DNA from: a virus
Taxonomy: Duplodnaviria; Heunggongvirae; Uroviricota; Caudoviricetes
Reading direction: 5' to 3' (one strand)
IMG/VR virus record: IMGVR_UViG_3300025066_000017
DNA: 64,000 nucleotides
The notes below the pieces were generated by a model, which had not been told where the DNA came from, did no database searches, and was given only the letters and a program-made list of their open reading frames with translations. This document shows positions 37,177 through 63,988 of the stretch, in pieces. Numbering within the stretch: position 1 is the first letter of the stretch; the number at the start of each line of letters is the position of its first letter. The position numbers and the translations under genes were made by a program.

Positions 37177-39288
37177 TTATTTTTCTGCACCACCCTTTCT
37201 CACAACACCCACACCCTTTCCATAAACCTTTACATCGACCTGTTTATTCTTTTTTAGAGTTCTATATATGCTCGTTAATAATCGAAGCATTTTTTCTAAA
37301 CCTGTAGCACTTCCTTTGTCTATAGGCATACTGCCTATAGTGCCATACTTAGCTACTATCTTATGTGTATTTTGAGTAGTGTAAGGAAGTTGACTATAGG
37401 CTTCGGTTACCATTTTCTTCGATTTCTCCAGACCAAAACGTTGAAGCATATCCATTGCCCCTCCTCTTGAAAGTCCTCTGCTTATATCTACTTCTGTTCC
37501 GGACTTCTCATTGTACACATTAAGGAACGCTCCCCACCCATTGCTCATACCAGAGAACATATTGCTAGAACCACTATACGCTTTTGCAAAAGCACCAATC
37601 CCTTGCAAAAGCTTTGTCACCGATCCAGAAATCGCCTGTATGCCTGTTCGCACAGGCCCTGCAATGGCTCTCATTCCATCTCTAATTAGAGGAACGAGGG
37701 TTTTTATATCTTCGAACATTGGTCCCACCATGTGAAGCATCGATTGCTGGATGCTATCAATCGAGAACAATGTATCCAGCTGATTAGAACCAAGATTGGC
37801 CATTCGATCAAAACGTTTTGCCAAAATAGCTGGGAATCCTCCAAACTTCTTCATCGCTGCCCACGCTTCCCTTTCTGCCCTGGGTCGGCTCTCTGCTTTT
37901 TCTTTCTCCTTTATGTCTTGAATCTTTTGTCTCGCTTCTTCAGGCGAAAGCTTTCCTTGCTTCTGCTGCAGATAAACCTTGCTAAACTCTTCTGCCATAT
38001 GGATTGAACCCATCCCCATCCCTTTGAATGCAAGCTTACCCGCATCCGACAAACCTCCTTGCTTGTTTGACCCATACTCACTGCGAAGCTGCTCCATGAT
38101 TGCCATCATGTTGCCACCACCCGCCCCTTGTTCCTGACGCTTCAACACGTCAATGAGACCGGCTCCCTTGCCAAACCCAAAGGCCCTCATCGCAAAGGCT
38201 TGTTGGACTCCTGTGGCTCCCTGGATAGCGGAATGCGCCTGAGCCAAAGCCCCACCCGCAAAACGTCCCCTCATTCCTCCCAGTTGTAGTCGCGCCAACT
38301 CTTCGGCAAATCCCTTGTAGCCATCTTTACCAGGAGTAATCCGTATCTGCTGTTCAGATAGTTGATTAGCCGCCGCGAGAAACTCTCCGATCCTTGCGCG
38401 TTCGAGTCCGGTCTCAACTCCTAAAGCCAAGGATTCAGATATTGTTCGCATCATGGCGTCAGAACCTGCACCCCCTCTCAGGTTCTGGCGAGACATAATG
38501 CCTCCACCAAAAGCTAAGGATTCTTGACCCAATCCTCGCATTAGCTTTAGAGCATTTCTTCCTCCTCTTCTCCCTCCAGTAATTCCCTGTCTAGCCGCAT
38601 TTGCTTGAATCTGCGCAGCTTCCGCAGAGTTATATGCATAGTCCGCTCCGTGAGCATACTTTGCTTTTGGGCCTAAAACCGCGCTTCCTTCCATTCTTGC
38701 CCTGGTTTGCTTCTCATAAGATCCTATCGCTTCTCGGAAAGCAGAAACAAGAAATCCTAAAATACTACCCGCACCAAAGACACCCGCTTTTATTGCATTC
38801 CGGCTAGTCCATCCACCCGCAGTTTTAGCACCTCGGGCCATCCGACCACCAATGCCAACCTTACCCACACCAGGACCACGACCACCACCACCACCTGATT
38901 GATGTCGACGCTTGGATGCAGCATATCTCTCGTCTGCCTTCCTTGCTTTATCAGCACTGTCCATCAATTTGTTAAATTGTTGTTCCGCAGTCCTCGCTTC
39001 TTTTCCCAGAGCCTGAACAGTCTGTTGCATACCACGCAGACCCTGCTGCGCCTGTTGGCCTTGACGACGTACATTTTGCTTCATTCCCTTCCTTGAAGGA
39101 AACATCACTTGACCAAGAACTCCAGAATTACCACCACTACGATCCATATAGCTCATTGTGGTCTGCACAGTTCTCCTGGCAGAACGTAGAAAATTTTGTC
39201 TCGCCATCCTTTCCGACGCTGCGTCTAGCGTCAATATAAGAGGTACTTCAATTCCTTCTTTCGTAGCCATAACAAATCCTCGAATCAA
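37177..39288 (-). CDS. Tail tape measure protein
   Basis: 703 aa, Gly/Ala/Met/Gln-rich with long helical segments. Position is after the tube and chaperone genes and before the baseplate genes. Confidence 0.6.
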   Translation of the reverse strand: MIRGFVMATKEGIEVPLILTLDAASERMARQNFLRSARRTVQTTMSYMDRSGGNSGVLGQVMFPSRKGMKQNVRRQGQQAQQGLRGMQQTVQALGKEARTAEQQFNKLMDSADKARKADERYAASKRRHQSGGGGGRGPGVGKVGIGGRMARGAKTAGGWTSRNAIKAGVFGAGSILGFLVSAFREAIGSYEKQTRARMEGSAVLGPKAKYAHGADYAYNSAEAAQIQANAARQGITGGRRGGRNALKLMRGLGQESLAFGGGIMSRQNLRGGAGSDAMMRTISESLALGVETGLERARIGEFLAAANQLSEQQIRITPGKDGYKGFAEELARLQLGGMRGRFAGGALAQAHSAIQGATGVQQAFAMRAFGFGKGAGLIDVLKRQEQGAGGGNMMAIMEQLRSEYGSNKQGGLSDAGKLAFKGMGMGSIHMAEEFSKVYLQQKQGKLSPEEARQKIQDIKEKEKAESRPRAEREAWAAMKKFGGFPAILAKRFDRMANLGSNQLDTLFSIDSIQQSMLHMVGPMFEDIKTLVPLIRDGMRAIAGPVRTGIQAISGSVTKLLQGIGAFAKAYSGSSNMFSGMSNGWGAFLNVYNEKSGTEVDISRGLSRGGAMDMLQRFGLEKSKKMVTEAYSQLPYTTQNTHKIVAKYGTIGSMPIDKGSATGLEKMLRLLTSIYRTLKKNKQVDVKVYGKGVGVVRKGGAEK

Positions 39289-39373: not shown

Positions 39374-39799
39374 TTAAGCATATTCTACTGCATGACCTTG
39401 ACCGATCATCCAGTAATTAACGTACTTATAGCCTTCACCATCTTCTAGGAAAACATGGATGATATATCTCCCATATTTCCCCGCTTTATCTTTTTCAGAC
39501 CTGATAATGACTTCCTTGCCTTCGATCAAGTCTTGTAAAGCCTCCTTTGCCAGAAGTCCCTTCTCTCTTTCCTCGCCGCGAAGTTCCCATGCATCAATAC
39601 CCGCCAAACGCACGGTCTGATCTCGAAGCCAAACACCAAACCCCAATGAAATATCAAGTTTGACCGTATCTCCATCATATACAGATGTACAAAGCGCTCT
39701 GTATACATAGAAATCATTTTGATCCGGTGGCGATGTTTCGGCATCTCTTTCCCTCTGTGGAAAAATTGTTTGAGATGCGTTTGGCAACAATCCTGACAT
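39374..39799 (-). CDS. Staphylococcal nuclease (SNase/thermonuclease)-like protein
   Basis: VYDGDTVKLDI...VRLAGIDAWELRGEE...KYGRYIIHVF matches the SNase motifs (DGDT...RL.GID.PE plus catalytic Arg/Glu spacing). Confidence 0.7.
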   Translation of the reverse strand: MSGLLPNASQTIFPQRERDAETSPPDQNDFYVYRALCTSVYDGDTVKLDISLGFGVWLRDQTVRLAGIDAWELRGEEREKGLLAKEALQDLIEGKEVIIRSEKDKAGKYGRYIIHVFLEDGEGYKYVNYWMIGQGHAVEYA

Positions 39800-39810
39800 T
39801 TTGTCTACTC

Positions 39811-40395
39811 CTATTTCACAGCACCGATTGAATTCATAAACTCATCGAATTGCTCGGGGGGGATATTCCCTATAGCCGCATTATACCTGTCGGAAACTCT
39901 ATCCACTGGCATGTCTCTGAAGTCCATGTCTTCCTCTAATTTCCCATGAGATCTTTCCAGTTCATAAAGCTCTGCTGCTTCTCCCGTATATCGATCTCGG
40001 GCTTTTGGAATATAGATGGCTTCTCCGGTTTCTTCGTATTGTTTTTGAGCTAAGTGTCGAACTCTGGCGTCAAATCTTTTTGTTGACTCATCTTCACCTT
40101 CATCCAAGTCTGGCTCTATTCCCATAGCAAACTGACGTTCCCACTTGTCAAAGAGAGGATCTCCCGTAAGCGAAAGTTCGTATCCAAGGTGTCGGAGCCG
40201 TACCTTACGAGCCAACTCTTCATCGAACATATAGAGGTCTTCTAAATACTCAACTATCAAATCAGCCTGCTGGCTCATCCCCCATGACGGGTGTGTTATC
40301 GGAAGTTGGTATTTCTTCGTCCACCAAATCCTCAAGAGCGTTAGATGGTTCGGCTCTGTGATGTTCCTGATCGCTATGGCTTCCGCCATCTCCAT
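39811..40395 (-). CDS. ORF overlapping the 3' end of the upstream gene in the +1 frame; candidate second half of a tail-assembly-chaperone frameshift pair
   Basis: 134-nt overlap with ORF 40262-41038. Its frame is +1 relative to that ORF, as verified by hand translation of the overlap. It sits between the tube and tape measure genes, the position of the G/GT (E/E') pair. Confidence 0.35.
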   Translation of the reverse strand: MEMAEAIAIRNITEPNHLTLLRIWWTKKYQLPITHPSWGMSQQADLIVEYLEDLYMFDEELARKVRLRHLGYELSLTGDPLFDKWERQFAMGIEPDLDEGEDESTKRFDARVRHLAQKQYEETGEAIYIPKARDRYTGEAAELYELERSHGKLEEDMDFRDMPVDRVSDRYNAAIGNIPPEQFDEFMNSIGAVK

Positions 40396-41038
40396 GCTCT
40401 GGTTCTCTGGAATTAAGGATGCTTGCGCGAAAGGGGTCTACCAAGGCGGCTTTCTCGTAGATTAAATCTATGAGTTCCATATGGTAGACATTACCTCCTA
40501 TTATCTGGTTGTTATACCAAGGGGGACATTGCGTGATGGTGTATAAAAGAAAGCACATCCTGTCCGCAAGCTCATCCACACCATCTGGAATTCCCCACCC
40601 CGGATTAGTTGGATCGTAGTAATACCCATTCAGCATCGAGCCTTTGCGAGATTGTATGAGCAGTTGAGTGAAGACATTAGGGCGAACCACAGTGAAAGAC
40701 CCCACATAATGAATTCCTTCTATGGTGACATTAAGCTCAAACTGCCGCTCTAATTGAACCTTTGAAACAATGCTTCGCTTTGAATGGTCCAGGGGATGAG
40801 GGTTGGCTGGTGGTAGCCCCGTTTGGGGATGTCCGTAGGGAGACGGTTGCGTGTTTTGGGGCGGATGCCCACCCCATGCACCAGGAGGTTGTTGCCCTTG
40901 TGGAGGATATGGTTGTTGCCCTTGTGGAGGATATGGTTGTTGCCCTTGTGGAGGATATGGTTGTTGTTGGTATTGTCCCTGTTGAGGGGGATACCCTCCA
41001 GGATACTGTCCGGGTTTTCCACTTTGGCCATGGTTCAT
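40262..41038 (-). CDS. Pro/Gln-rich repeat protein; candidate tail assembly chaperone (upstream partner of overlapping pair)
   Basis: N-terminal (PYPPQGQQ)x3 repeats arising from 27-nt tandem repeats at about 40886-40975. Globular C-terminal half. Confidence 0.4.
   Translation of the reverse strand: MNHGQSGKPGQYPGGYPPQQGQYQQQPYPPQGQQPYPPQGQQPYPPQGQQPPGAWGGHPPQNTQPSPYGHPQTGLPPANPHPLDHSKRSIVSKVQLERQFELNVTIEGIHYVGSFTVVRPNVFTQLLIQSRKGSMLNGYYYDPTNPGWGIPDGVDELADRMCFLLYTITQCPPWYNNQIIGGNVYHMELIDLIYEKAALVDPFRASILNSREPEHGDGGSHSDQEHHRAEPSNALEDLVDEEIPTSDNTPVMGDEPAG
40886..40975. repeat. 3 x 27-nt tandem repeat (ggaggatatggttgttgcccttgtgga), coding for PYPPQGQQ repeats
   Basis: Direct reading of sequence at 40861-40980. 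Confidence 0.8.
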
Positions 41039-41082: not shown

Positions 41083-41496
41083 TTAAATTGTGGACTCGTC
41101 AATGCAACGAGTTGCAACAAAGGCGACGTTCTCGGTAACAATACCTCGAGCCGCCATATCAAAGTTCTTTGTAGTAGCTTTCACACCAATGAAGTGATAA
41201 GCCGTCCTTCCTGTCGCAGATTCTTCGACGGAAGCGGTTAAAGCACCATTTGTCAGAATGTTTGTGTGAATTGGGAAGATGCCGAGGTTTTTCAGAGATT
41301 TCGTGAGGACACGAAACACATTGGCGTTGAGCGATGTTCGATATCCCACCTCGACATACTCGAGAACCTCAACAAAGTCTAGAACATCGACAGGCTCCAT
41401 GTCGACGCTTTCTTCACCAGAAACACCACCCGCATAGGCGACCTTCTGACCATTGATCTTGAAACGACTGCGAACGCCTGCAAATACTTCTGCCAT
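41083..41496 (-). CDS. Tail tube-like / tail-associated small beta protein
   Basis: 137-aa ORF with a strong Shine-Dalgarno sequence (aaggagaaaacaagATG). Lies in the sheath-tube-chaperone segment. Assignment is by size and position only. Confidence 0.4.
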   Translation of the reverse strand: MAEVFAGVRSRFKINGQKVAYAGGVSGEESVDMEPVDVLDFVEVLEYVEVGYRTSLNANVFRVLTKSLKNLGIFPIHTNILTNGALTASVEESATGRTAYHFIGVKATTKNFDMAARGIVTENVAFVATRCIDESTI

Positions 41497-41701: not shown

Positions 41702-41890
41702 CTACTGGGAGGGGTCGTTTGGGTCTGTTGTGCTTTCTTGCTTTTGGAGAAGTTCTTCTCTGTAGATACTGACATCCTTTGGGGCCTTAACCCCAAGCCT
41801 CACGGTCTTTCTCGTTATGGCTTTGACTTCGATGACAATATCTCCATTGATAATGATTCTTTCTCCAACCTTCCTTGTCAACGTGAGCAT
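41702..41890 (-). CDS. csrA: CsrA/RsmA family RNA-binding translational regulator
   Basis: MLTLTRKVGERIIINGDIVIEVKAITRKTVRLGVKAPKDVSIYREELLQKQ aligns along the full length with E. coli CsrA [52 protein letters not shown]. Size 62 aa; aaggaagg Shine-Dalgarno. Confidence 0.85.
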   Translation of the reverse strand: MLTLTRKVGERIIINGDIVIEVKAITRKTVRLGVKAPKDVSIYREELLQKQESTTDPNDPSQ

Positions 41891-50021: not shown

Positions 50022-53000
50022 TCACATTTGATTTGGATCGTTTGGATCTGGCACACCACCCAAAGGAGGAATTTTGTTTCTATCCGGATTAGTCTGCATA
50101 TAAAGCGGAACTGGCTTGGCTTGACCATACCCTGGAATTTCATTCTCACCCGCAGTCATATACGCCATTTGCTCCTCACTGGGATCGGGCAACATCTGCC
50201 CCTCTTCTTCCAATAAGGTTCTCGCCTGAATCCAAGCAGGGTTCAAAATCACATTGCCATCCGGACGAGGAGGAAGACCCTCAGATGCACGACCTTCATT
50301 AAGTGTCATAAACGCGCTCATCTTCATATTAAGAAGCTCCACGCGCTCTCTCTCAGACAACTCATCCAAACCAACAAAATCGAAATACAACCTCGAATCC
50401 AATGGGTCCACTATGTACTTCGTGATTTGTTTCGATATAAAACGAAGCAGAGGCCGAAGCCCTTTGTCTCGAGAGTGCTTTATTTTCCACTCGTGCTTAC
50501 TCTCAAACACAGGTGCCCCACCACTCCCACCACCACTTGTTAAATCAAAACCAACCTCAGATGGATCAATCAAGTAAGACGCGCAAACCTGACGAATCAA
50601 ATACTCCAGCCAGGACTGGAATTCCATCTCCCGATTCGTATGCTGCAGGTCGATGTATTCCATCTGTTCCGCCTGCAATATAGGGGTTCTGAACGAGTTT
50701 GAAATGACAATCCCGTTCGCGGCAAAAGCGTGTAGATCTGTGTTGATAGAAACATCAAACATGTCAACGAAATCAGTTGTTATCTCAATTTCTGAGATAG
50801 GAGAGAAGTGATACTCAAGAAGCCAGTTGGGTGGAGTAATATTTACTTTCTCAAGAAATCGAAGAATGCGGGGGAGACTACACCCATCATCGCCTCGAAT
50901 TATCGCATTAAGGTCCAACCTTTCTCGCAGGGTTAGTAATTCGTAATTAGCCTCTTTGTTCTTTTTTTGTATTTTTCTGGCGAAGAAATAAGTTGTTCGC
51001 GGAGAAACCCGGCTATGTTTATTCGCCTCGTTGGGGTTTACTAAATCATCGGGCTGCTTGTGGTCTTGAAGGAATCCAATGTTTTCATAAAAGTAGTCTT
51101 TGTCTTTTATGCGAAGAAGCGACTCTTTCTCTTCGTAATACCGAAGAGGGCCATCTATGACAATTTTTTGTTTTCCTTCCGACAGATTTGTTCGGATTCC
51201 AACTGAACTAAGAAGCCACTTCACTTCCTGACGCAAACTATCATTTGTGATCGTGATTGCGACAAAACGTCCATCTCCTATGTGACCATCGGCAGAGAAG
51301 AGTCCTCGGAGAAAAGCAAATTTCAATTCATTGGGAAGGGTATACACAAACGGAGGGACGTTTTTCCCTTCAGAGGAAAACTGGAATCCGACTTCTTTTA
51401 ACCATCTGGCAAAATTGACGTTATTTAAAACAATTTGAAGTCGCTCAGACGCAACACTCTTGAAACCATATCGTTCTTTGATCTTTTCCTGTTCTTCGGG
51501 AGTAATGTGGATATCTTTCAAACGTGCTGCAGGATCAAAGTCTTTGAGTATGGAAAGATGTCGTTCTCGTATCTCTCTTTCTTTTTCATGGTGATAGAAA
51601 CAAAGCATTCCTTTATCACTAAAGTACCCATCACCAACAGCCCATCCTAGGACTTCCATGAGATCGGGTGTGACTTGTTTTCCGTTGCAGTGTGGAATAT
51701 TGTCCGGGTTTTGTGGGGATTGTTTGTTTACAAGAACATAATCCCCTTCTTGAAGATCTTCGAGTCGTTTCCAAACAGGAAGACCATCTCCACCACCTAA
51801 AACTCTAAACTTATGATCTGGTGATGATTTGATCTCCAATCCACACGCCAGTTTTAGACGACAAAGTTGTTTTTGCTCCTTTGTGCGATAGACCAGACCA
51901 GAAGCCCATTCTTTTCCTGTCCAGATTGTCGCTTCTTTTTCTTCCGTGCCTTCAATATAGTTTTCAAGAGAAACCATCCCTTCTTCTCTTGTCCAGATTG
52001 TCGTATCTCCATGAAGACAGTTTTCCACACCTGCGATCATGGCATACCAAGCTCTTCTAAAGCTTTCCATTTGGGCCTCGGAAATCTCGTCGCCCTTAAT
52101 GTTGATCAATCCCTTCGGCGCGGAGTTGGAGAGAATCACTCCACCACAGGACCACTGGTGCGAGGAATCCTTGATTCTCACATCGTACATTGGGCGCATC
52201 TCTTCCATGTCTTCGATAGAAGAAACACGAATCCATTGGTAGGAGAGTTCCTCCAGGAAATCCCAACAATCCAGTTTCTGACAGATTTCAATTATTTCAT
52301 CTCTAGAACATAACTCTTGGCTAGAATCATCCGCAAAATTGGCAAGTTTTAGCAAAAGTGTTCTTTCCTCGAAGAATAAAGAACTTATATCGCAATGCTC
52401 CTCTAAATGCTTTGCCATTCTTTTTAATAGAGGCTTGGGTATATTTTTGTTTCTTATGTAGATCAGAGATTCGGGCAATTCTATGGGGGCTACTTCTAAG
52501 CTACGAGCAACAAAATCACCTTCTTGTATCTCCGCGATTGGCCTCATGAGTATCTCGCCGCTATCCGTCAGTGCGAGGAACTTATGGTCGGGTGATGTGT
52601 GTATCTCAAATCCATCATCAAGTGTTGTTCGAATGGTTTCTTTTTGCCCCGTAGAGACAACATCAAAAGGAACCCACCTCGATCCATTCCAAACATTTCC
52701 GATGGGTGAAAATTCGACATCTGGATTTACTGGGAGATCTTTGATGTAGAAAACACCTTCGTCAGTAAAAACTCTTGTGTCCTCTCCCACACAACCCTGC
52801 TTAAAGAAAGCTCGATTATAAATCTCGCCCCAAAGCATCCCCAGGACAGCGTTGAGGGCTTTCTCTAGTTCACTGGTTCCGTATCCATTGTTCCAGATAT
52901 TGGTTTCAGGGTTTCTCACACAGAATGCAAGATCATTGTATGAAAAGATATTTTCGATGCGGCCATGAAGGAGTTGTATAGAAAAGACCTGATCAGATGT

Positions 53001-53888
53001 CATGCCTCCAAACTCTTCTCCATATACTTTTTTCCATCTCTCCTGGAAGCCATCTGTAAATTGTTCACGCTGCAGTCTGTTGGGACCGCTTCCTCGGAAA
53101 CCTTCAAATGTGGCTGCGAGTCTAATTGTTGCGGCATCTACTGCTCTGAACTCATAGGGGCGACCATATGTGTCTGGAGTGATTTCGGCGCATGCCTGAT
53201 CTAGCGTAAGTGAGTCTGTGGTGAATTTTCTAAGAAAAGTCTCAAAGTCATCTCGTGGGTAGGGAGAGTATGGGTTGGGTCCAAATCCACACGCCATAAT
53301 CATTTGCTCGAGTCTTCGAATCTGTTCCTTTTCTTCATCAGATGGTTGATGTCCATCGTCCTTGAATCGGATTTGAAATCCGACCTGCTTGTTTTCTCTA
53401 TAGGGTTGGGCGAAGGCTGCGACTTGGTTGACTCGTGTCGTGATAATGGAAGCGATGATAGGCACCTGCTTCACAATGGCGCGTAGGGCGTCAAAGGACA
53501 CCGAGAAGCGACGTTCTCTATATCCGGCAGAGTACATGAGTGTCAGAGGGTCGAAGAATCGCGTGCGTGGCCCTCTCGCAGGAACCATTCCACTGGGAAG
53601 AGACTTGTATGCGTCCGGGCCTTGTCTATACATACTGGGAGACATTTGGGTTGATGGAGTGATAATACTGCTTTGTTGTTCTGCGGCATTGTGAGTAGCC
53701 AGAACATTCCCTGTTCCTACAGGGACTCCATTATTTTTTACCTCACTCCCTTTTGCTCCATGCACTCCACCATGATAATGATCTTGAAAAAAAGCATTCG
53801 GTGAAGAAGATACAGTTTGCTCCTGCATCATCAACATCGAATCTTCTTGACCCATAGCTCTGTTTTTCAACCAACTATTTATACTCAT
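50022..53888 (-). CDS. Portal-like protein precursor containing two inteins (extein about 624 aa)
   Basis: Two Cys-initiated Hint segments. Each has a ...SPDHKF(L/R)... block and ends in (G)I(V/L)(I/L)SN followed by Ser. No Walker A motif in the exteins, which argues against terminase. Position upstream of the head genes. Confidence 0.55.
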   Translation of the reverse strand: MSINSWLKNRAMGQEDSMLMMQEQTVSSSPNAFFQDHYHGGVHGAKGSEVKNNGVPVGTGNVLATHNAAEQQSSIITPSTQMSPSMYRQGPDAYKSLPSGMVPARGPRTRFFDPLTLMYSAGYRERRFSVSFDALRAIVKQVPIIASIITTRVNQVAAFAQPYRENKQVGFQIRFKDDGHQPSDEEKEQIRRLEQMIMACGFGPNPYSPYPRDDFETFLRKFTTDSLTLDQACAEITPDTYGRPYEFRAVDAATIRLAATFEGFRGSGPNRLQREQFTDGFQERWKKVYGEEFGGMTSDQVFSIQLLHGRIENIFSYNDLAFCVRNPETNIWNNGYGTSELEKALNAVLGMLWGEIYNRAFFKQGCVGEDTRVFTDEGVFYIKDLPVNPDVEFSPIGNVWNGSRWVPFDVVSTGQKETIRTTLDDGFEIHTSPDHKFLALTDSGEILMRPIAEIQEGDFVARSLEVAPIELPESLIYIRNKNIPKPLLKRMAKHLEEHCDISSLFFEERTLLLKLANFADDSSQELCSRDEIIEICQKLDCWDFLEELSYQWIRVSSIEDMEEMRPMYDVRIKDSSHQWSCGGVILSNSAPKGLINIKGDEISEAQMESFRRAWYAMIAGVENCLHGDTTIWTREEGMVSLENYIEGTEEKEATIWTGKEWASGLVYRTKEQKQLCRLKLACGLEIKSSPDHKFRVLGGGDGLPVWKRLEDLQEGDYVLVNKQSPQNPDNIPHCNGKQVTPDLMEVLGWAVGDGYFSDKGMLCFYHHEKEREIRERHLSILKDFDPAARLKDIHITPEEQEKIKERYGFKSVASERLQIVLNNVNFARWLKEVGFQFSSEGKNVPPFVYTLPNELKFAFLRGLFSADGHIGDGRFVAITITNDSLRQEVKWLLSSVGIRTNLSEGKQKIVIDGPLRYYEEKESLLRIKDKDYFYENIGFLQDHKQPDDLVNPNEANKHSRVSPRTTYFFARKIQKKNKEANYELLTLRERLDLNAIIRGDDGCSLPRILRFLEKVNITPPNWLLEYHFSPISEIEITTDFVDMFDVSINTDLHAFAANGIVISNSFRTPILQAEQMEYIDLQHTNREMEFQSWLEYLIRQVCASYLIDPSEVGFDLTSGGGSGGAPVFESKHEWKIKHSRDKGLRPLLRFISKQITKYIVDPLDSRLYFDFVGLDELSERERVELLNMKMSAFMTLNEGRASEGLPPRPDGNVILNPAWIQARTLLEEEGQMLPDPSEEQMAYMTAGENEIPGYGQAKPVPLYMQTNPDRNKIPPLGGVPDPNDPNQM
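50697..52019 (-). mobile_element. Intein 2 with LAGLIDADG homing endonuclease (about 441 aa: CLHGDTTIW ... ANGIVISN | S)
   Basis: aa 624-1064 of the same ORF. Two LAGLIDADG-type motifs (LGWAVGDGYF, LRGLFSADGHIGDG) lie between the Hint halves. Confidence 0.55.
52125..52793 (-). mobile_element. Intein 1 (mini-intein, about 223 aa: CVGEDTRVF ... MYDVRIKDSSHQWSCGGVILSN | S)
   Basis: Coordinates computed from aa 366-588 of ORF 50022-53888. N-terminal splicing block C-x-G-x-T, TSPDHKFLAL block and C-terminal block ending SN+S. Confidence 0.5.
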
Positions 53889-57847: not shown

Positions 57848-60800
57848 TTATTTATGTATCGGAACAAAACAAAGAGGACCAGTAGACTTTTCTATTGAAA
57901 CATTTTCTTGCTCAAAAGAAACACCAATGGATTTTAGAAATCCATCCATTCCACCATCTCCCCAACCGTTCGACTCTTCTCCGGAGTTTGAAATAAAATC
58001 TACCACTTCTTGTTCTGGTCCAGGATCTGATATCCCATGGTCATCAGGACTCCCCGGCTGATAATACTCGTCTCCTCGAGTAAACTGCCAAACACCCACA
58101 CCTTCTTCCGGCGTCTCTTGCTGCATAGGCGATGGTTGCGGAGGCTCTGGCTCTGCAGGGGCTGGTCCTTCTATAAAGACAGGCTGGCCTCCCATTTGTC
58201 GATAATGACCAATATCACCCTGCTCACCAACCTCTTGGCCTCCAGGCATAGGATCTCCCATAGCCTTCTCCATCGGTGTTATCACGAGAGGACCTTTAGC
58301 GCCCAATACAGAATCTGGATCTTTATCATCATTATCTATGGAAACACTTTTGTTAGAAAGATCATCTTCTTCAATGTTTTCTTCATTGCCAGATACATTC
58401 ACACCATACTCTGCCAAATCATCCACCATGTCCCCGCCTAGCCAGTTTGCAAAATCGGGCATTTCTGCTTGAGAGTCGGAAACTTCTGCTTGAGAGTCGG
58501 AAATTTCTTTGATTCTCTGAGTTTCTTGTTTGCGTGACTCCTCGAGACTGGCCGCTTGGTCTGGGGGCAACATATTGTGTTCAATTTGAGCATCCTGAAT
58601 CAGCTTGCCCAATTTTTGCCGTTTTTCTTCTGGATCGTCGATCTTTCCAAGAATTGTGTGCCATGCAAATGGCATAGTATCAGGCTCTCGAAGAAGATCT
58701 TCTGCCTTCCAACTTCCTTTTCCTAGATGTCTTAGTACTTTCTTTACACCATGCCTTGCCTTGGTTTGTGATAGTTCTTTTTGTGTTTCCTCTTCCTCCT
58801 TTTTCTCCCGTTCGACTCTTTCTCCATCTGCTATTGCAGTTTCTGTGTACTCTTCATCCCCAGTTCGATCAGTCAAGCCTAAGACTTTCTCAACTATGCC
58901 TTGTTTCTTTTTTTGTTTCTTTTCTTTTTCGACTCTTTCTCCATCTGCTATTGCAGTTTCTGTGTACTCTTCATCCCCAGTTCGATCAGTCAAGCCTAAG
59001 ACTCTCTCAACTATGCCTTGTTTCTTTTTTTGTTTCTTTTTTTGTTTCTTTTCTTTTTCGACTCTTTCTCCATCTGCTATTGCAGTTTCTGTGTACTCTT
59101 CATCCCCAGTTCGATCAGTCAAGCCTAAGGCTCTCTCACCCCAGCTCTGCTTCTTCTTCTTTTGAGTCGGAGCAACTTCTTCTTCTGCGGAAACATCTTC
59201 GTTTCTCATTCCTGTATCCTCTGCTTGTTCTTCGGGCAACTCTGGAAGATCTGGCAACTCTTCACCAGTAAATAATTCCGGGAAACGTTGTTGTAGTTCG
59301 CTCTGATAATGAGAAGCTGCCTTGTATTGTGGATCTATATCACGTCCAAACTGTTGTGCCTGTCGCACAAAATCTTGCGCAATTCCTTTTGGATGCCAAT
59401 TACCCATATCGTAATTATCATCCAAATATTCTTGCAGACGATGTCCCGAAGAACCTTCCTTATGCAAACCCTTTAGACGAGACTCTAGATTTCGAACCAT
59501 TGTTCCGTATGCAGATCTGTATGCGTCTTTTCCTAATGTCCTTTGTAATCTTTTACCATGATCCCTAAAAATCGATTTATTCTTATCTAAAAGATCAAAC
59601 GCCTCACTATGAGTTCCTTGAGCAGCCTCGAAGATTTCTGGATTCTCTCCCATTCCTGCCAATGCATTTTGTATTGGATGAGAATGGTCGTTTACAACGC
59701 GGAAAGATGGTGGCGTTTTTTCTTTGGGAGCCTCTCCCGCGTTCTCATCAAAAAGATTAGAATCCGGAGTCTGGTTAGAGTCGGGAGTCTGATTCTCTTG
59801 ATTCAGTTTTTCTCCTGTTCTTTGGCTTCGATAAGATCTGTTCCCAGTTATTAACTCAGATGCATCCGATATAAAGGCGGTTGCATCATCAAATAAACCA
59901 CCTTCTCCCGAAGCCTTTGCTTCTTTCATCCTTTTACGAGACTCTCTTCTTGAAGATTCTTTCAAGAGCTTTCGTATATTTGATGGGTAGTCACCGTGTA
60001 GAGCATCTTCACCAAATGCACTTATCAATGGACCAAAAAGCGACCTACCCAAACGCACAACTTCTTCCTCTTGATCTGGACCTATATCTTGTCCCAATAG
60101 ATGGGACAGGGCTTCTGCGTGCTCTTGGTTGTAAGCTTGATCAAAAGCTTTCATTGTAGAACCATGAAAAAGTCTATCAGACAATCTACGTAGCCATGGT
60201 GAGTCTTCTGATTGCTCTCTAAACTCGTCCATATACCCTTTTAGCTTTTGGCTATGTCGGAGGAACTTTCTGGCTCTATTAAGCGTTGCACTATTGTTTT
60301 TCTTTTTCTTTGCTTGTTTTGCCTGGGGTTGAATTTGAAGGGCACCCTTCGTTCCCGGAGCATTGCTTTCTGTGCTTTCTATGGGTTGGCTCGGAGAAGC
60401 ATCATCTTCTTGATAGTCTTCTTCTTGATAATCATCTTCTTGTTGATCATCTTCTTGATAATCATCTTCTTGTTGATCATCTTCTTGTTGATCATCTTCT
60501 TGATAATCTTCTTCTTGATAATCATCTTCTTGTTGATCATCTTCTTGATAATCATCTTCTTGTTGATCATCTTCTTGTTGATCATCTTCTTGATAATCTT
60601 CTTCTTGATAATCTTCTTCTTGATAATCTTCTGTATCTATATCCGAAGACTCTGCTCTAGGCTCACTCTTCGCAGAGTCAACTTGAACACCTTCATCAGT
60701 ATCCTCGCTCTGGGTTTCCTGCGTGTCTTTATCAAACTCCGCAGTCCCCTCTCTCTCCTCTCTCGAAGATAAGAACTCGTCATCTCTCTCTCGTCGAGAA

Positions 60801-63800
60801 CGACTTTGTTTACGATATTCACTCAAACGAGAGCGATTTTGCTCTAGATGGGCATCTAGAGCAAAATCGTCATCGCCCCCTACTCCAGGACCTTCTCCTA
60901 GTTGTTTGAATATTTCTTCTAGTTGAGAACGGTGCTCTTCATCACCAACGCCAGAGAGATGATCAAAGATTCGATCTTCTGTTTGTCTAAAGGCCGGATC
61001 ATGCTCGGCTCGTAAATTTTCTAATCGTGAGAGGTGATGCTTGAACTTTTCTCCTCTGCTCATGTATCGAGTTTCTTCAGGCTCGCTACCTAAGTCTGCA
61101 CTTCCCCCTAAACTCTCTCCAGTTAAGACAGAGAATATCGGGCTCTGCATATAGTTTTGTAGAATTTGACCGTGCTTTTCCAATTCCTCTCTAAGAGAAG
61201 CCGGTGCTGTGTTCGGAAGAAGCTGCTGCAATAGGTGTGTCGTATGTTCCTTTTCGCGAATATTCTTCACATGCTCGATAGCACTATCTACCAAGTGTTG
61301 TTCATTTGCCGCCGACAATTCTTGCATAACAGGATGATCGTCCGAGAGCCCTGGTGTGGACGCTTCATGCGAGAGCCCTGGTGTGGGCGCTTCATGTTTT
61401 TTAATATCCTCTATAGTTTGGGACAGATCCTTGAAAGCAAACTCTTGTTTTCCTGTGTCTTTGTTGTCCTCTTTTTGATCTAACTGGTCCTTAGCAGATG
61501 ATTCTTCACCTACTTCATTTTGTTGAGCATTATGTCCACGTTTATATGTTTCGGGATTTCTTCTTAATGTGCTTTTGAATTTACGAAGCTTTGTTCGAAG
61601 TTGCCCCATATCCGAATGATATTTCTCTAGTTCTTCGGGGCTAGGAGCTTCTTCTGATTCAGACCATTCGTTCGCACGATCCTCTAAATCAGAAAGACCA
61701 TCTCTTATATCTCTTGGAAAATGATCTGTTGCAATAGGACTTCCATCCGAATGACGTAACCCTTCCTTTAGAAACTTAAATTTCTCCAGGTTCATATCCC
61801 TTTGAATAGACCTATCTTCATCATTACCTATATGTCGTTCTGGTGAATCTATCTCAACATCTTCATATGACTTTGTTTCTGCTCCCTTTCTTCTAGGAAC
61901 TCTTGAAGCTTTTCCTCTAAGTTTAGATTCATTTCCATTATTGTCGCTTGCTTCATTGCCTATCAGTTTTTCGTCTTCAAAAACATCTTCTTCAATAGCA
62001 CCTTCGGAGGTATCTTCATCAAATCCTTCAGTATCCTCTTCTCCCGAATCTAGACCCAAGGCATCTTTTATAGCAAATTTGGTGTCTTGCCATTGCTTCC
62101 ATCTTGACTCCTTAGCCTCTGGGGAGTCTGTTGGCATGGATTGGACTTCTTCAAGTTGCTCCACTAGATCTTTATGCTCTGGGGCGTCTCCCAACGCCTC
62201 TGAGATGCTATTCGCCAGAGAAGTTATTGACTCGTGAGACTCGTCAGAGAGAACATCTTCAGTCTCTGGCTTCTCTGCGGGGAGAAGATTTTCCTTTATA
62301 TCCTCATCTGAAAGTTTCTCTGCAGATGCACCTGGATTGTAGAATCCTCTAAACTGTCTTGTTTCATTCTCGTTCCAATCTTTAGAGTCTAAAGATTCTT
62401 CACCATAAGAAGACGGTTGCTCTGCCGCTTGTAATATTTCTTTTATATCCTCCAAGTTTCTTGCTTCCATCGGATAAGAAGGTTCTTCTTCTTTCATCGA
62501 TGGAGACGATGCTTCCGTTTCTGGAGCAGATATTCTTTCTGTGGGGCTTGGAGTGTCTGTTGACGTCTCTTCGTCATCGCCCCAAGGATCCCCATCAAAA
62601 GGACTTTCGGATCCTGGACGACTAGAGACCTGTGTGTCTTCTTCGGGACGACTAGAGACCTGTGTGTCTTCTTCGGGACGTCTAGAGACCTGTGTGTCTT
62701 CTTCGGGACGTCTAGAGACCTGTGTATCTTCTTCTGGACGACTAGAGACCTGTGTGTCTTCTTCTGGACGACTAGAGACCTGTGTGTCTTCCTCTCTTGC
62801 TTTTATTTGAGGAGTTGGCGCGGTTCCTAGATTTGTTGGATTTGAAGATCCTGATAAACTATTCTGTGTTCTTATCATCAAGGCATTGTAATCTTTTTTT
62901 ATTTGATTAATTTCTTCTTGCGAAGCTCCTCTCTTCTCTGCTTCTTCTGTTTCTCTACGTAATGCTTGATGAAGGTCGCCCAAGATCTGAGTTTGATGAC
63001 TCACGTTATCCGAAGGAGCTTCATCTCGGTATAACCTATTATTCGATGGTTGCTCTCTTCTATCCTGTAATCTCTGTTTATTCCCATGCGCTTCTTTTAT
63101 TCTGCGCTTTAGCTCATTGCGCTGCTCAGTTGAAAAATCATCGGGATGCTCTAAATCTGTTTCTTCAAGAAGTCCATCTCTGAGATGTGACATCTCTTCA
63201 TGACTCATTTGTCCAGACTCGAGAAGAGATGCAATTTCTTTTGTTTCTGGAGCAGAAGCAAGAGCAGGATCCTTAGAATCTTCTCCTAATGGACTCTCCA
63301 TTACACCTGTATCCGCAAACGCAGAATTGTCCATCATATCCGTATCGGCAAACGCTCTAGGAGAAACGTCTTGTTCTTTTTGATCGACTAGGTTCCCTGG
63401 CATTCCATCATCAAAAAGCTTCGCATCATTCTCACTGAATCCTGCATTTTCTAAAACATCTGGATTTAGCTTCTTAAACTGATCCCATATTTTTTTATAT
63501 TCACCCATCTGTACCCGTTCAAATTGAGACAGACCTCCCTTCTCTTCCACAATCCTCTTGAATTCAGAAGCCACCCTTTCTACATTATCAAGGATTTCAC
63601 CTTGCTCCTCATCGAGACCCCCTTCACGAAGCCTCTCAAAATGAGAACTATCCATATCAAGAAAAGATTTCTCTTCTCCATCCAGCTTATCTACTGGATG
63701 GAAAAAATCATGCATTTGCGCTTCTTGTAAGTCTCTTTCGAGTTTAGCACCCGACGATCTTTTTGGTAGCGACCCATGATCAACAAAAGGCTGAAATTGT

Positions 63801-63988
63801 TGCGGCGTTGAGCTAGAGTCGAATGAAGGTTGTGCTTGATTTCCTCTTCCCACCGGAGCCAATTGACCAATCTGAGCATGCTCCCCGGTATTTGATAAAT
63901 CTTGTATACCAGAAACATCCGACATACGATCACTCAATCCAGGAATTTTACTTTGCGCGACGTTCCAAATTTGTTTCGCTTCATCCAA
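57848..63988 (-). CDS. Giant hyper-acidic repeat-containing protein (>2046 aa; N-terminus beyond window edge)
   Basis: Continuous ORF to the window end. Very high Glu/Asp/Gln content. Three internal tandem-repeat arrays encode EEDTQVSSRP x6, (E/D)DYQEED / DDQQEDD runs, and (LGLTDRTGDEEYTETAIADGERVEKEKKQKKKQ) x3. Confidence 0.55.
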   Translation of the reverse strand: MDEAKQIWNVAQSKIPGLSDRMSDVSGIQDLSNTGEHAQIGQLAPVGRGNQAQPSFDSSSTPQQFQPFVDHGSLPKRSSGAKLERDLQEAQMHDFFHPVDKLDGEEKSFLDMDSSHFERLREGGLDEEQGEILDNVERVASEFKRIVEEKGGLSQFERVQMGEYKKIWDQFKKLNPDVLENAGFSENDAKLFDDGMPGNLVDQKEQDVSPRAFADTDMMDNSAFADTGVMESPLGEDSKDPALASAPETKEIASLLESGQMSHEEMSHLRDGLLEETDLEHPDDFSTEQRNELKRRIKEAHGNKQRLQDRREQPSNNRLYRDEAPSDNVSHQTQILGDLHQALRRETEEAEKRGASQEEINQIKKDYNALMIRTQNSLSGSSNPTNLGTAPTPQIKAREEDTQVSSRPEEDTQVSSRPEEDTQVSRRPEEDTQVSRRPEEDTQVSSRPEEDTQVSSRPGSESPFDGDPWGDDEETSTDTPSPTERISAPETEASSPSMKEEEPSYPMEARNLEDIKEILQAAEQPSSYGEESLDSKDWNENETRQFRGFYNPGASAEKLSDEDIKENLLPAEKPETEDVLSDESHESITSLANSISEALGDAPEHKDLVEQLEEVQSMPTDSPEAKESRWKQWQDTKFAIKDALGLDSGEEDTEGFDEDTSEGAIEEDVFEDEKLIGNEASDNNGNESKLRGKASRVPRRKGAETKSYEDVEIDSPERHIGNDEDRSIQRDMNLEKFKFLKEGLRHSDGSPIATDHFPRDIRDGLSDLEDRANEWSESEEAPSPEELEKYHSDMGQLRTKLRKFKSTLRRNPETYKRGHNAQQNEVGEESSAKDQLDQKEDNKDTGKQEFAFKDLSQTIEDIKKHEAPTPGLSHEASTPGLSDDHPVMQELSAANEQHLVDSAIEHVKNIREKEHTTHLLQQLLPNTAPASLREELEKHGQILQNYMQSPIFSVLTGESLGGSADLGSEPEETRYMSRGEKFKHHLSRLENLRAEHDPAFRQTEDRIFDHLSGVGDEEHRSQLEEIFKQLGEGPGVGGDDDFALDAHLEQNRSRLSEYRKQSRSRRERDDEFLSSREEREGTAEFDKDTQETQSEDTDEGVQVDSAKSEPRAESSDIDTEDYQEEDYQEEDYQEDDQQEDDQQEDDYQEDDQQEDDYQEEDYQEDDQQEDDQQEDDYQEDDQQEDDYQEEDYQEDDASPSQPIESTESNAPGTKGALQIQPQAKQAKKKKNNSATLNRARKFLRHSQKLKGYMDEFREQSEDSPWLRRLSDRLFHGSTMKAFDQAYNQEHAEALSHLLGQDIGPDQEEEVVRLGRSLFGPLISAFGEDALHGDYPSNIRKLLKESSRRESRKRMKEAKASGEGGLFDDATAFISDASELITGNRSYRSQRTGEKLNQENQTPDSNQTPDSNLFDENAGEAPKEKTPPSFRVVNDHSHPIQNALAGMGENPEIFEAAQGTHSEAFDLLDKNKSIFRDHGKRLQRTLGKDAYRSAYGTMVRNLESRLKGLHKEGSSGHRLQEYLDDNYDMGNWHPKGIAQDFVRQAQQFGRDIDPQYKAASHYQSELQQRFPELFTGEELPDLPELPEEQAEDTGMRNEDVSAEEEVAPTQKKKKQSWGERALGLTDRTGDEEYTETAIADGERVEKEKKQKKKQKKKQGIVERVLGLTDRTGDEEYTETAIADGERVEKEKKQKKKQGIVEKVLGLTDRTGDEEYTETAIADGERVEREKKEEEETQKELSQTKARHGVKKVLRHLGKGSWKAEDLLREPDTMPFAWHTILGKIDDPEEKRQKLGKLIQDAQIEHNMLPPDQAASLEESRKQETQRIKEISDSQAEVSDSQAEMPDFANWLGGDMVDDLAEYGVNVSGNEENIEEDDLSNKSVSIDNDDKDPDSVLGAKGPLVITPMEKAMGDPMPGGQEVGEQGDIGHYRQMGGQPVFIEGPAPAEPEPPQPSPMQQETPEEGVGVWQFTRGDEYYQPGSPDDHGISDPGPEQEVVDFISNSGEESNGWGDGGMDGFLKSIGVSFEQENVSIEKSTGPLCFVPIHK
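58786..59165. repeat. 3 x ~117-129-nt tandem repeats within giant ORF
   Basis: Unit ttcgactctttctccatctgctattgcagtttctgtgtactcttcatccccagttcgatcagtcaagcctaag..., starting at about 58811, 58928 and 59057. Confidence 0.8.
60401..60650. repeat. Array of ~30-nt repeats (tcttcttgataatcatcttcttgttgatca), coding acidic DYQEED/DQQEDD runs
   Basis: Direct reading of 60400-60650. Confidence 0.75.
62378..62396. promoter_or_regulatory. Palindrome copy 16, located inside the giant acidic ORF
   Basis: The only copy embedded in a long reading frame (translates in frame as ...SLDSKDW...). The other 15 are intergenic or overlap a stop codon. Confidence 0.6.
62616..62795. repeat. 6 x 30-nt perfect/near-perfect tandem repeat (ggacg[a/t]ctagagacctgtgt[g/a]tcttcttc[g/t]), coding EEDTQVS(S/R)RP
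   Basis: Copies begin at 62616, 62646, 62676, 62706, 62736 and 62766. Confidence 0.85.

Follow-up and report, generated by a model that had tools for sequence, protein, structure and literature searches.

A probable +1 frameshift at UUU-C joining two overlapping frames of a tail assembly chaperone locus in an uncultured marine phage

The stretch analyzed here (the window) comprises 64,000 nucleotides (nt) of a tailed virus of the Caudoviricetes (IMG/VR record IMGVR_UViG_3300025066_000017), in which two overlapping open reading frames (ORFs), A and B, lie between a tail tube gene and a tape-measure-like gene. An earlier note, made from the sequence alone, had proposed that the pair encodes a tail assembly chaperone made by a programmed translational frameshift of +1 rather than -1. 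The coordinates that it gave for both ORFs were correct, as was the overlap of 134 nt at 40262-40395, and ORF B lies in the +1 (equivalently -2) frame relative to ORF A (41038 mod 3 = 1, 40395 mod 3 = 0). The -1 relation of the canonical XXXYYYZ systems was found neither in the window nor in any of the relatives. Every gene in this part of the window is on the minus strand, and the 5' to 3' order is sheath, an ORF of 188 amino acids (aa), a CsrA-like gene, tube, A, B, an SNase-type nuclease gene, a tape-measure-like ORF and a tail-lysin-like ORF, so that the position between tube and tape measure stated in the earlier note also stood. The features of the pair are:

40262..41038, minus strand: ORF A, ATG start, 258 aa, the putative short chaperone (TAC-N, zero-frame product).
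39811-40395, minus strand: ORF B, ATG start, 194 aa.
40438..40440, minus strand: B-frame stop (TAG) that precedes the slip codon by two codons and bounds, on the 5' side, any shift into the B frame.
40427..40435, minus strand: proposed +1 slip site CCC UUU CGC, with UUU at 40432-40430; TTT-Y occurs at the same aligned phenylalanine (Phe) across the family.
40262..40429, minus strand: 168 nt of dual coding, running from the slip site as far as A's stop codon, where frame 0 gives the tail of A and frame +1 the predicted N-terminal helices of the B part.
39811..40428, minus strand: B-frame part of the predicted trans-frame product, 205 codons and a stop.

The B frame is open up to 40437, beyond the ATG at 40395. 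Both ORF B, as read from that ATG, and the 155-aa protein that gene callers start at ATG 40278 are subsets of 39811..40428. The predicted fusion (TAC-NC), made of codons 1-203 of A and the B-frame part, is 408 aa long.

Homologue searches of metagenomes, by protein and by DNA pattern, retrieved contigs (L002-L012, L024) that, over the segment compared, matched the window exactly or lacked one repeat unit, and about 27 further non-redundant lineages whose trans-frame products were 25-41% identical to that of the window in a 10-sequence trans-frame alignment; L038 was left out as a false positive of the motif scan. A HMMER scan with the trans-frame profile yielded 543 cluster representatives at E <= 1e-3. 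A word-index protein search with the fusion alignment gave only 12 matches and was dominated by the low-complexity N-terminus, and tblastn of the window's A, B and tube, of P0154 and of the L047 tube gave no match among 50,697 phage records. The family is thus large and environmental, with genome guanine-plus-cytosine (GC) contents from 37% to 69%.

The +1 overlap was present in every one of the ~28 divergent relatives and spanned 71-269 nt in the lineages with enough sequence. In each, an A-like ORF of 120-190 codons terminates where the B frame is open, and B lies in the +1 frame without exception, a frame other than the one that the usual 1-nt or 4-nt gene overlaps would yield. That the overlap could have arisen by chance from composition, reflect a faulty assembly or be left from a gene in decay is scarcely credible. 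Alternative-frame ORFs of this length do arise by chance in some genomes, and nothing specific to this locus speaks for such an origin. Against it, the A-B sequence of the window was 100% identical in several independent metagenome assemblies from different samples, which excludes an assembly error; both frames have homologues among the 543 cluster representatives; and the arrangement is kept at the low identities given above.

Conservation differed between the two frames. The trans-frame fusions from ten lineages aligned end to end with an invariant Phe (F203), and the conserved segments of the B frame begin just past it, reading F-[STG]-D..., A-K-x-I-A-R-x-N and L-R-R/I-W-W-x-K-K-Y; in the window, the conserved B-frame motifs are LLRIWWTKKYQ and GDPLFDKWER. 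The frame-0 tails of A are poorly conserved and range from 2 to 66 codons (55 in the window, 37-66 in its clade and 2-50 in the other marine clades). Mean pairwise identity within the window's clade was 0.36 in the B frame versus 0.27 in the A frame, and the window and L001 differ by four substitutions within LLRIWWTKKYQ, all of them synonymous in B and all non-synonymous in A. The frame-0 tail of the window is long, and therefore 168 nt are dual coding, which made the overlap conspicuous in the earlier note.

The invariant Phe closes the conserved C-terminal helix of A (Y-E-E-V-x-x-F/H-E-x-x-F), and its codon is the proposed slip codon. TTT followed by C or T, mostly C, was found at this aligned position in 27 of 28 non-redundant uncultured lineages, and the slippery site was likewise conserved within the overlap in 6/6 cultured genera. 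Four lineages carried TTT TTT C/T or TTT TTC at the slip Phe, and all eight members of the window's clade had TTT CGN. The codon was kept even in lineages, high-GC genomes included, where TTT makes up a small share of the Phe codons, as in L045 (5%), L044 (12%), L016 (16%), L040 (19%) and L021 (24%). With its GAA anticodon, tRNA-Phe recognizes UUU through wobble and UUC through Watson-Crick pairs; a +1 slip that takes it from the former codon onto the latter would be favourable for that reason. The codon usage of the window's genes shows 6.5 CGC per 1000, the frame-0 A-site codon, versus 18.1 per 1000 for the +1 codon GCG, and the rarity of CGC fits a slow-codon model weakly. The earlier note had proposed looking for the shift site within 40262-40395, an interval too far downstream because it was bounded by the first ATG of B, which is not conserved as a start; the probable site, 40429-40432, is 34 nt upstream of it.

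A frameshift at some other site, or by another route, is a very unlikely explanation of the same data. Since +1 and -2 shifts lead into an identical frame, a -2 slip of the kind used by phage Mu (PMC5009743) would also give the fusion; the window contains GCT CTT GAG GAT just ahead of the LLRIWW motif, where CUU GAG G could allow a slip from CUU to UUG; and runs of six to seven T in L022, L023 and L029 make slippage of the polymerase conceivable. By inspection, however, a -2 re-pairing at CCC UUU C would land tRNA-Phe on CCU, and the three Ts of the window are too few for transcriptional slippage. CUU GAG, which lies in 40262-40395, was rejected as a slip site, as it is not conserved (CTT is ATT in L001) and is located downstream of the stop of A in many relatives (L018, L019, L021, L016), in which the shift must therefore come earlier. 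Only TTT-Y is common to the whole family and to Herelleviridae, which favours UUU-C as the point of slippage.

Several observations weigh against a +1 slip at UUU-C. The downstream stimulatory structure that the earlier note suggested looking for was not found: the 116 nt around and after the site had z = 0.04 relative to shuffled sequences, with 0 consensus pairs among the eight clade members. The sequence just upstream of the slip site in the window (TTGGTAGACCCC) had no match to a Shine-Dalgarno-like element. Nor is the codon that follows UUU a rare one in every lineage; it varies in other clades (CAC, CTC, CGG). Conservation is lacking in the 11 B-frame codons directly after the slip (AQASLIPENQS), and consequently in the window alone the shift point is set only by the family alignment. 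Neither A nor B of the window had a direct Pfam or PHROG match, and the fold search with the B model gave no significant match. One lineage, L026, is the sole exception to TTT-Y (AAC TAT TAT TCC, at ~520-560). It has a B-frame ATG at the position of the window's ATG 40395, an ATG that L013 shares as well, there with GGAG 7 nt upstream; L026 may use another site or independent initiation, and B may likewise be initiated on its own in the window and L013. A GAGG present in some relatives was also considered as a Shine-Dalgarno-like stimulator and rejected, being explained by glutamate codons and absent from the window.

The shared ATG, together with public gene calls that list B as a separate protein of 155 aa, could suggest that A and B are independent overlapping genes, B starting at ATG 40395 (194 aa) or at 40278 (155 aa) without any fusion or, in a milder form, giving free B in addition to the fusion. 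This reading appears unlikely. The ATG at 40395 aligns with CTG or ATC, which are not starts, in L054, L055, L057, L058 and probably L059; at the same position within the window's clade, L056 has TTG and L013 ATG. No Shine-Dalgarno sequence precedes 40395, 40389 or 40278, whereas all five neighbouring genes carry AGGAG or AGGA at 6-8 nt. The gene callers' ATG 40278 lies downstream of LLRIWWTKKYQ, and a start there would remove this motif, which is under selection in the B frame. Several relatives have no start that would serve: in L020/L021 and L044 no ATG, GTG or TTG occurs from the B-frame stop to the conserved B segments (through the WW motif), in L040 the earliest start (ATG) lies only past the conserved A-K segment, and L029 offers a single candidate, a TTG that precedes the slip codon by 14 codons and falls within the conserved domain of A. 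The database starts of B are scattered, and the LRRWW motif is often cut by gene callers. The downstream ORF overlaps A in another frame with neither a conserved start nor a conserved ribosome-binding site, and independent initiation leaves the conserved TTT-Y, the invariant +1 phase and a natural fusion gene in L047 unexplained.

That fusion gene belongs to a lineage in which the two products are encoded separately. L047 (1807-3123) carries a stand-alone A gene of 145 aa followed by an in-frame A-B gene of 284 aa (P0144), both flanked by a tube gene of the Phi812 type on one side and a tape-measure-like gene of 739 aa on the other. Its two A domains are 49% identical (E 3e-40), and the Phe codons at the junction, TTT A and TTC G, are not slippery. 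The short form and the fusion, here encoded by two genes, are the products that the frameshift model predicts other lineages to make from one locus, and this offers indirect support for both products; L047 may be regarded as a natural control for the need of both a short and a fused chaperone.

Comparison with cultured phages linked the locus to Herelleviridae. In Staphylococcus phage K, the upstream ORF ends AAC TCC TTT CGT TAC TAA, the downstream ORF is +1 and its frame opens two codons before TTT; the two (PhageK_106/107) are annotated as 'putative tapemeasure chaperone protein' and 'putative tapemeasure chaperone frameshift protein'. In Zuko (Bacillus), Terranova (Staphylococcus), List-36 (Listeria), EA1 (Enterococcus) and Lbab1 (Lactobacillus), TTT CGN likewise stands two codons before the stop of A with B in +1, and the site context in the cultured phages is NCC/ACG/CGA TTT CGN. 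GenBank joins both ORFs in Zuko (gp275/gp274) and Terranova (102/103), with spans of 3n+1 nt. In the window, the A domain likewise ends with the corresponding CCC TTT CGC, and the B frame opens shortly before it, behind the TAG two codons earlier. A frame-0 stop two codons after the slip codon, as in the cultured phages, was not found there, frame 0 running on for 55 codons. An hhalign comparison of the marine fusions with six Herelleviridae fusions gave a probability of 96.1% and E 3e-9 over 127 columns, and the match aligns the slip Phe and extends into the B part, including the R..W motif. Homology of the A domain and the junction to Herelleviridae was therefore found at the profile level, the window protein itself having no direct match. 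Among 63 members of the A family, 44 matched phrog_25000 and 15 matched phrog_1038, both named 'tail assembly chaperone', the latter being the family used for the chaperone of Enterococcus phage EA1; the 63 had no Pfam match, and PHROGs gave none for the B family.

In the GenBank records of List-36 (L051 2012-2605), EA1 (L052 1988-2581) and Lbab1 (L053 1979-2593), the +1 ORF that follows the chaperone gene carries the name 'RNA polymerase (beta subunit)' (phrog_1316). Judged by their place, reading frame and TTT CGN, these three ORFs would be the C-terminal part of the chaperone fusion, and the name looks like a propagated mis-annotation.

Structure predictions with AlphaFold2 (AF2), for which A and B were modelled separately, agreed with a chaperone domain in A. 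Its residues fall into a P/Q/G-rich extension (1 to ~85), a folded chaperone domain (~95-210) and an acidic, Gly-rich tail (204-258). The model of A (predicted local distance difference test, pLDDT, 80) consists of a beta-hairpin and helices; the tail, read in frame 0 after the slip site, had a pLDDT of 60-72 and no secondary structure and is probably disordered. The best named matches of the A model among viral models (BFVD) were tail assembly chaperones of Bacillus phage JL, of Lactobacillus phages and of other Herelleviridae-like phages (E down to 1.9e-4). The top match of the fold search of the PDB was the HK97 tail assembly chaperone, which was not significant (E 0.4), and a sequence profile search of the PDB gave no match. 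The B model was all-helical (pLDDT 85; predicted template modelling score, pTM, 0.43).

The most probable interpretation, to which we assign a probability of about 0.78 from sequence comparison, is that the phage is a myophage with a phi812/SPO1-type tail and that a single tail-assembly-chaperone unit is read in two frames, A and B, joined by a +1 slip on UUU-C. The proposal of the earlier note is thereby supported by the gene order, the invariant +1 phase, the conserved UUU-Y, the pattern of conservation in the two frames (in the B frame from that codon on), the natural fusion gene of L047 and the homology to Herelleviridae, all of which are observed; from them we infer the slippage itself, its efficiency and the binding partners. 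The majority of ribosomes would read A in frame 0 to the stop at 40262 and give the short chaperone of 258 aa. In a minority, the P-site tRNA-Phe on UUU (40432-40430), with C as the next base, would re-pair with UUC (40431-40429), the next codon would be GCG (40428-40426), and the B frame would be read to 39811. In the product, a short linker would connect the A domain to the helical B domain, with AALVDPFAQASLIPENQSMEMAEAIAIR (…VDPF-AQAS…) as the predicted junction peptide. By analogy with gpG/gpGT of lambda (PMC5009743), the common A domain might coat the tape-measure protein and the B domain might recruit the tube protein, the ratio of both products being fixed by the slip rate.

The reading would correct how this locus is annotated, along with hundreds of related loci from metagenomes in which B is called separately with arbitrary starts, and it ties a large uncultured group, the 543 cluster representatives, to the tail module of Herelleviridae. 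It also implies that a simple +1 slip signal (UUU-C, mostly UUU CGN) is conserved far beyond the few phages in which a +1 chaperone shift was noted. The cultured phages infect Firmicutes, versus uncultured members from marine and other metagenomes. A more tentative idea, which we hold to be doubtful, is that UUU-C(GN) is a self-sufficient +1 signal that requires no RNA structure, Shine-Dalgarno element or stop codon and was long kept across the GC range of 37%-69%. The ratio of the chaperones would then be set by a basal slip of tRNA-Phe that does not depend on the host. Within the window's clade, the internal ATG and the 55 codons of frame-0 tail might further provide for free B, as a third product, or for a layer of regulation.

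The neighbouring genes and the repeat in A are:

Upstream of A, minus strand: tail sheath, 956 aa (phrog_279).
41702-41890, minus strand: CsrA-like RNA-binding regulator gene (Pfam CsrA at 1.2e-20; phrog_9500).
41083..41496, minus strand: tail tube gene, 137 aa (phrog_985 at 6.4e-12).
40887..40966, minus strand: 24-nt tandem repeat in 3.3 perfect copies (Tandem Repeats Finder), encoding PYPPQGQQ in the N-terminal extension of A.
39374..39799, minus strand: SNase-type nuclease gene (PF00565 at 3.5e-7; phrog_452 at 1.3e-26).
37177..39288, minus strand: tape-measure-like gene, 703 aa from TTG or 697 aa from ATG 39270.
Downstream of the tape-measure-like ORF, minus strand: tail-lysin-like ORF, 782 aa.

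The Pfam family PF26461 (Phi812_tail_tube) was recorded for an identical 137-aa tube protein on contigs that are 100% identical over the A-B segment compared. The nuclease that the earlier note had placed before the tape measure is present in the window. It is missing from that position in the relatives, in which B runs straight to the large ORF, and is by this comparison a lineage-specific insertion outside the frameshift unit. The tape-measure-like assignment follows from size, position and a Gly/Ala/Met-rich composition; the ORF had no Pfam or PHROG match, and AGGA stands 6 nt ahead of its ATG 39270. The pair is thus flanked by the tube gene on one side and, beyond the nuclease, by the tape-measure-like gene on the other.

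The PYPPQGQQ repeat, already recognized in the earlier note, is polymorphic in copy number: L002, L005 and L008 are one 24-nt unit shorter and otherwise identical over the 1,250-nt segment compared, the A protein then being 250 aa (P0003). Apart from this unit, no nucleotide difference was found over the segment among the contigs identical or nearly identical to the window. The ~85-residue P/Q/G-rich extension that contains the repeat was absent from all homologues examined. Elsewhere, the CsrA-like gene sits inside the tail module, between the sheath and tube genes. Precomputed Pfam results for contigs identical over the segment compared place an intein, with an endonuclease domain of the LAGLIDADG type, in the portal ORF (50022-53888, minus strand, 1288 aa), which is called at 1054 to 1288 aa among contigs of the same phage. 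Upstream of the structural module stands a very long ORF (57848-63925, minus strand, 2025 aa).

Among known frameshift systems, bacterial prfB (RF2) shifts by +1 at CUU UGA C and depends on a Shine-Dalgarno sequence 3 nt upstream as well as on a stop as its A-site codon. The window locus resembles prfB in that the P-site tRNA would slip +1 onto an overlapping cognate or near-cognate codon (UUU/UUC, read by a tRNA with a 5'-G anticodon). It differs in that the A-site codon is the sense codon CGC and no Shine-Dalgarno element was found ~3 nt upstream in the window.

In lambda, gpG and gpGT arise through a -1 shift on an XXXYYYZ heptamer (G GGA AAG) (Levin 1993; Xu 2004, 2013, 2014, via PMC5009743). 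The locus shares with lambda two products with a common N-terminal chaperone domain, from a gene between the major tail or tube gene and the tape-measure gene; unlike lambda, the predicted shift is +1 on UUU-C, no sequence similarity was detected and the window phage is contractile-tailed. Among tailed phages, shifts of -1, -2 and +1 are used for tail chaperones, phage Mu having a -2 shift and the haloarchaeal myovirus HSTV-2 a 'very likely +1' pair (PMC5009743). Mu and HSTV-2, both myoviruses, resemble the window in a downstream ORF that is +1/-2 and not -1. No homology to either was seen, though no search was aimed at it. Mu slips back 2 nt, adding a residue, which does not fit re-pairing at CCC UUU C.

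The closest resemblance was to Herelleviridae and SPO1-like phages. In both, the pair follows the sheath and a Phi812-type tube gene and precedes the tape measure and tail lysin, its second ORF is in the +1 frame, TTT CGN marks the end of the A domain a few codons past the point where the B frame opens, profile-level homology extends across the junction and the predicted A-domain folds are similar. The cultured phages have an overlap of ~17 nt in contrast to the 168 nt of dual coding (55 frame-0 codons) in the window, whose A also has the additional 85-residue P/Q/G-rich repeat region and whose nuclease gene precedes the tape measure; similarity to the window, which derives from marine metagenomes, is too low for BLAST or a direct PHROG match. 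An 'unusual +1 frameshift' was described for the tail chaperone of the SPO1-like Bacillus phage Moonbeam (PMC4299906). A +1 chaperone frameshift is therefore unusual and already known (PMC4299906, PMC5009743), and the pair in the window is a divergent, remote member of this type.

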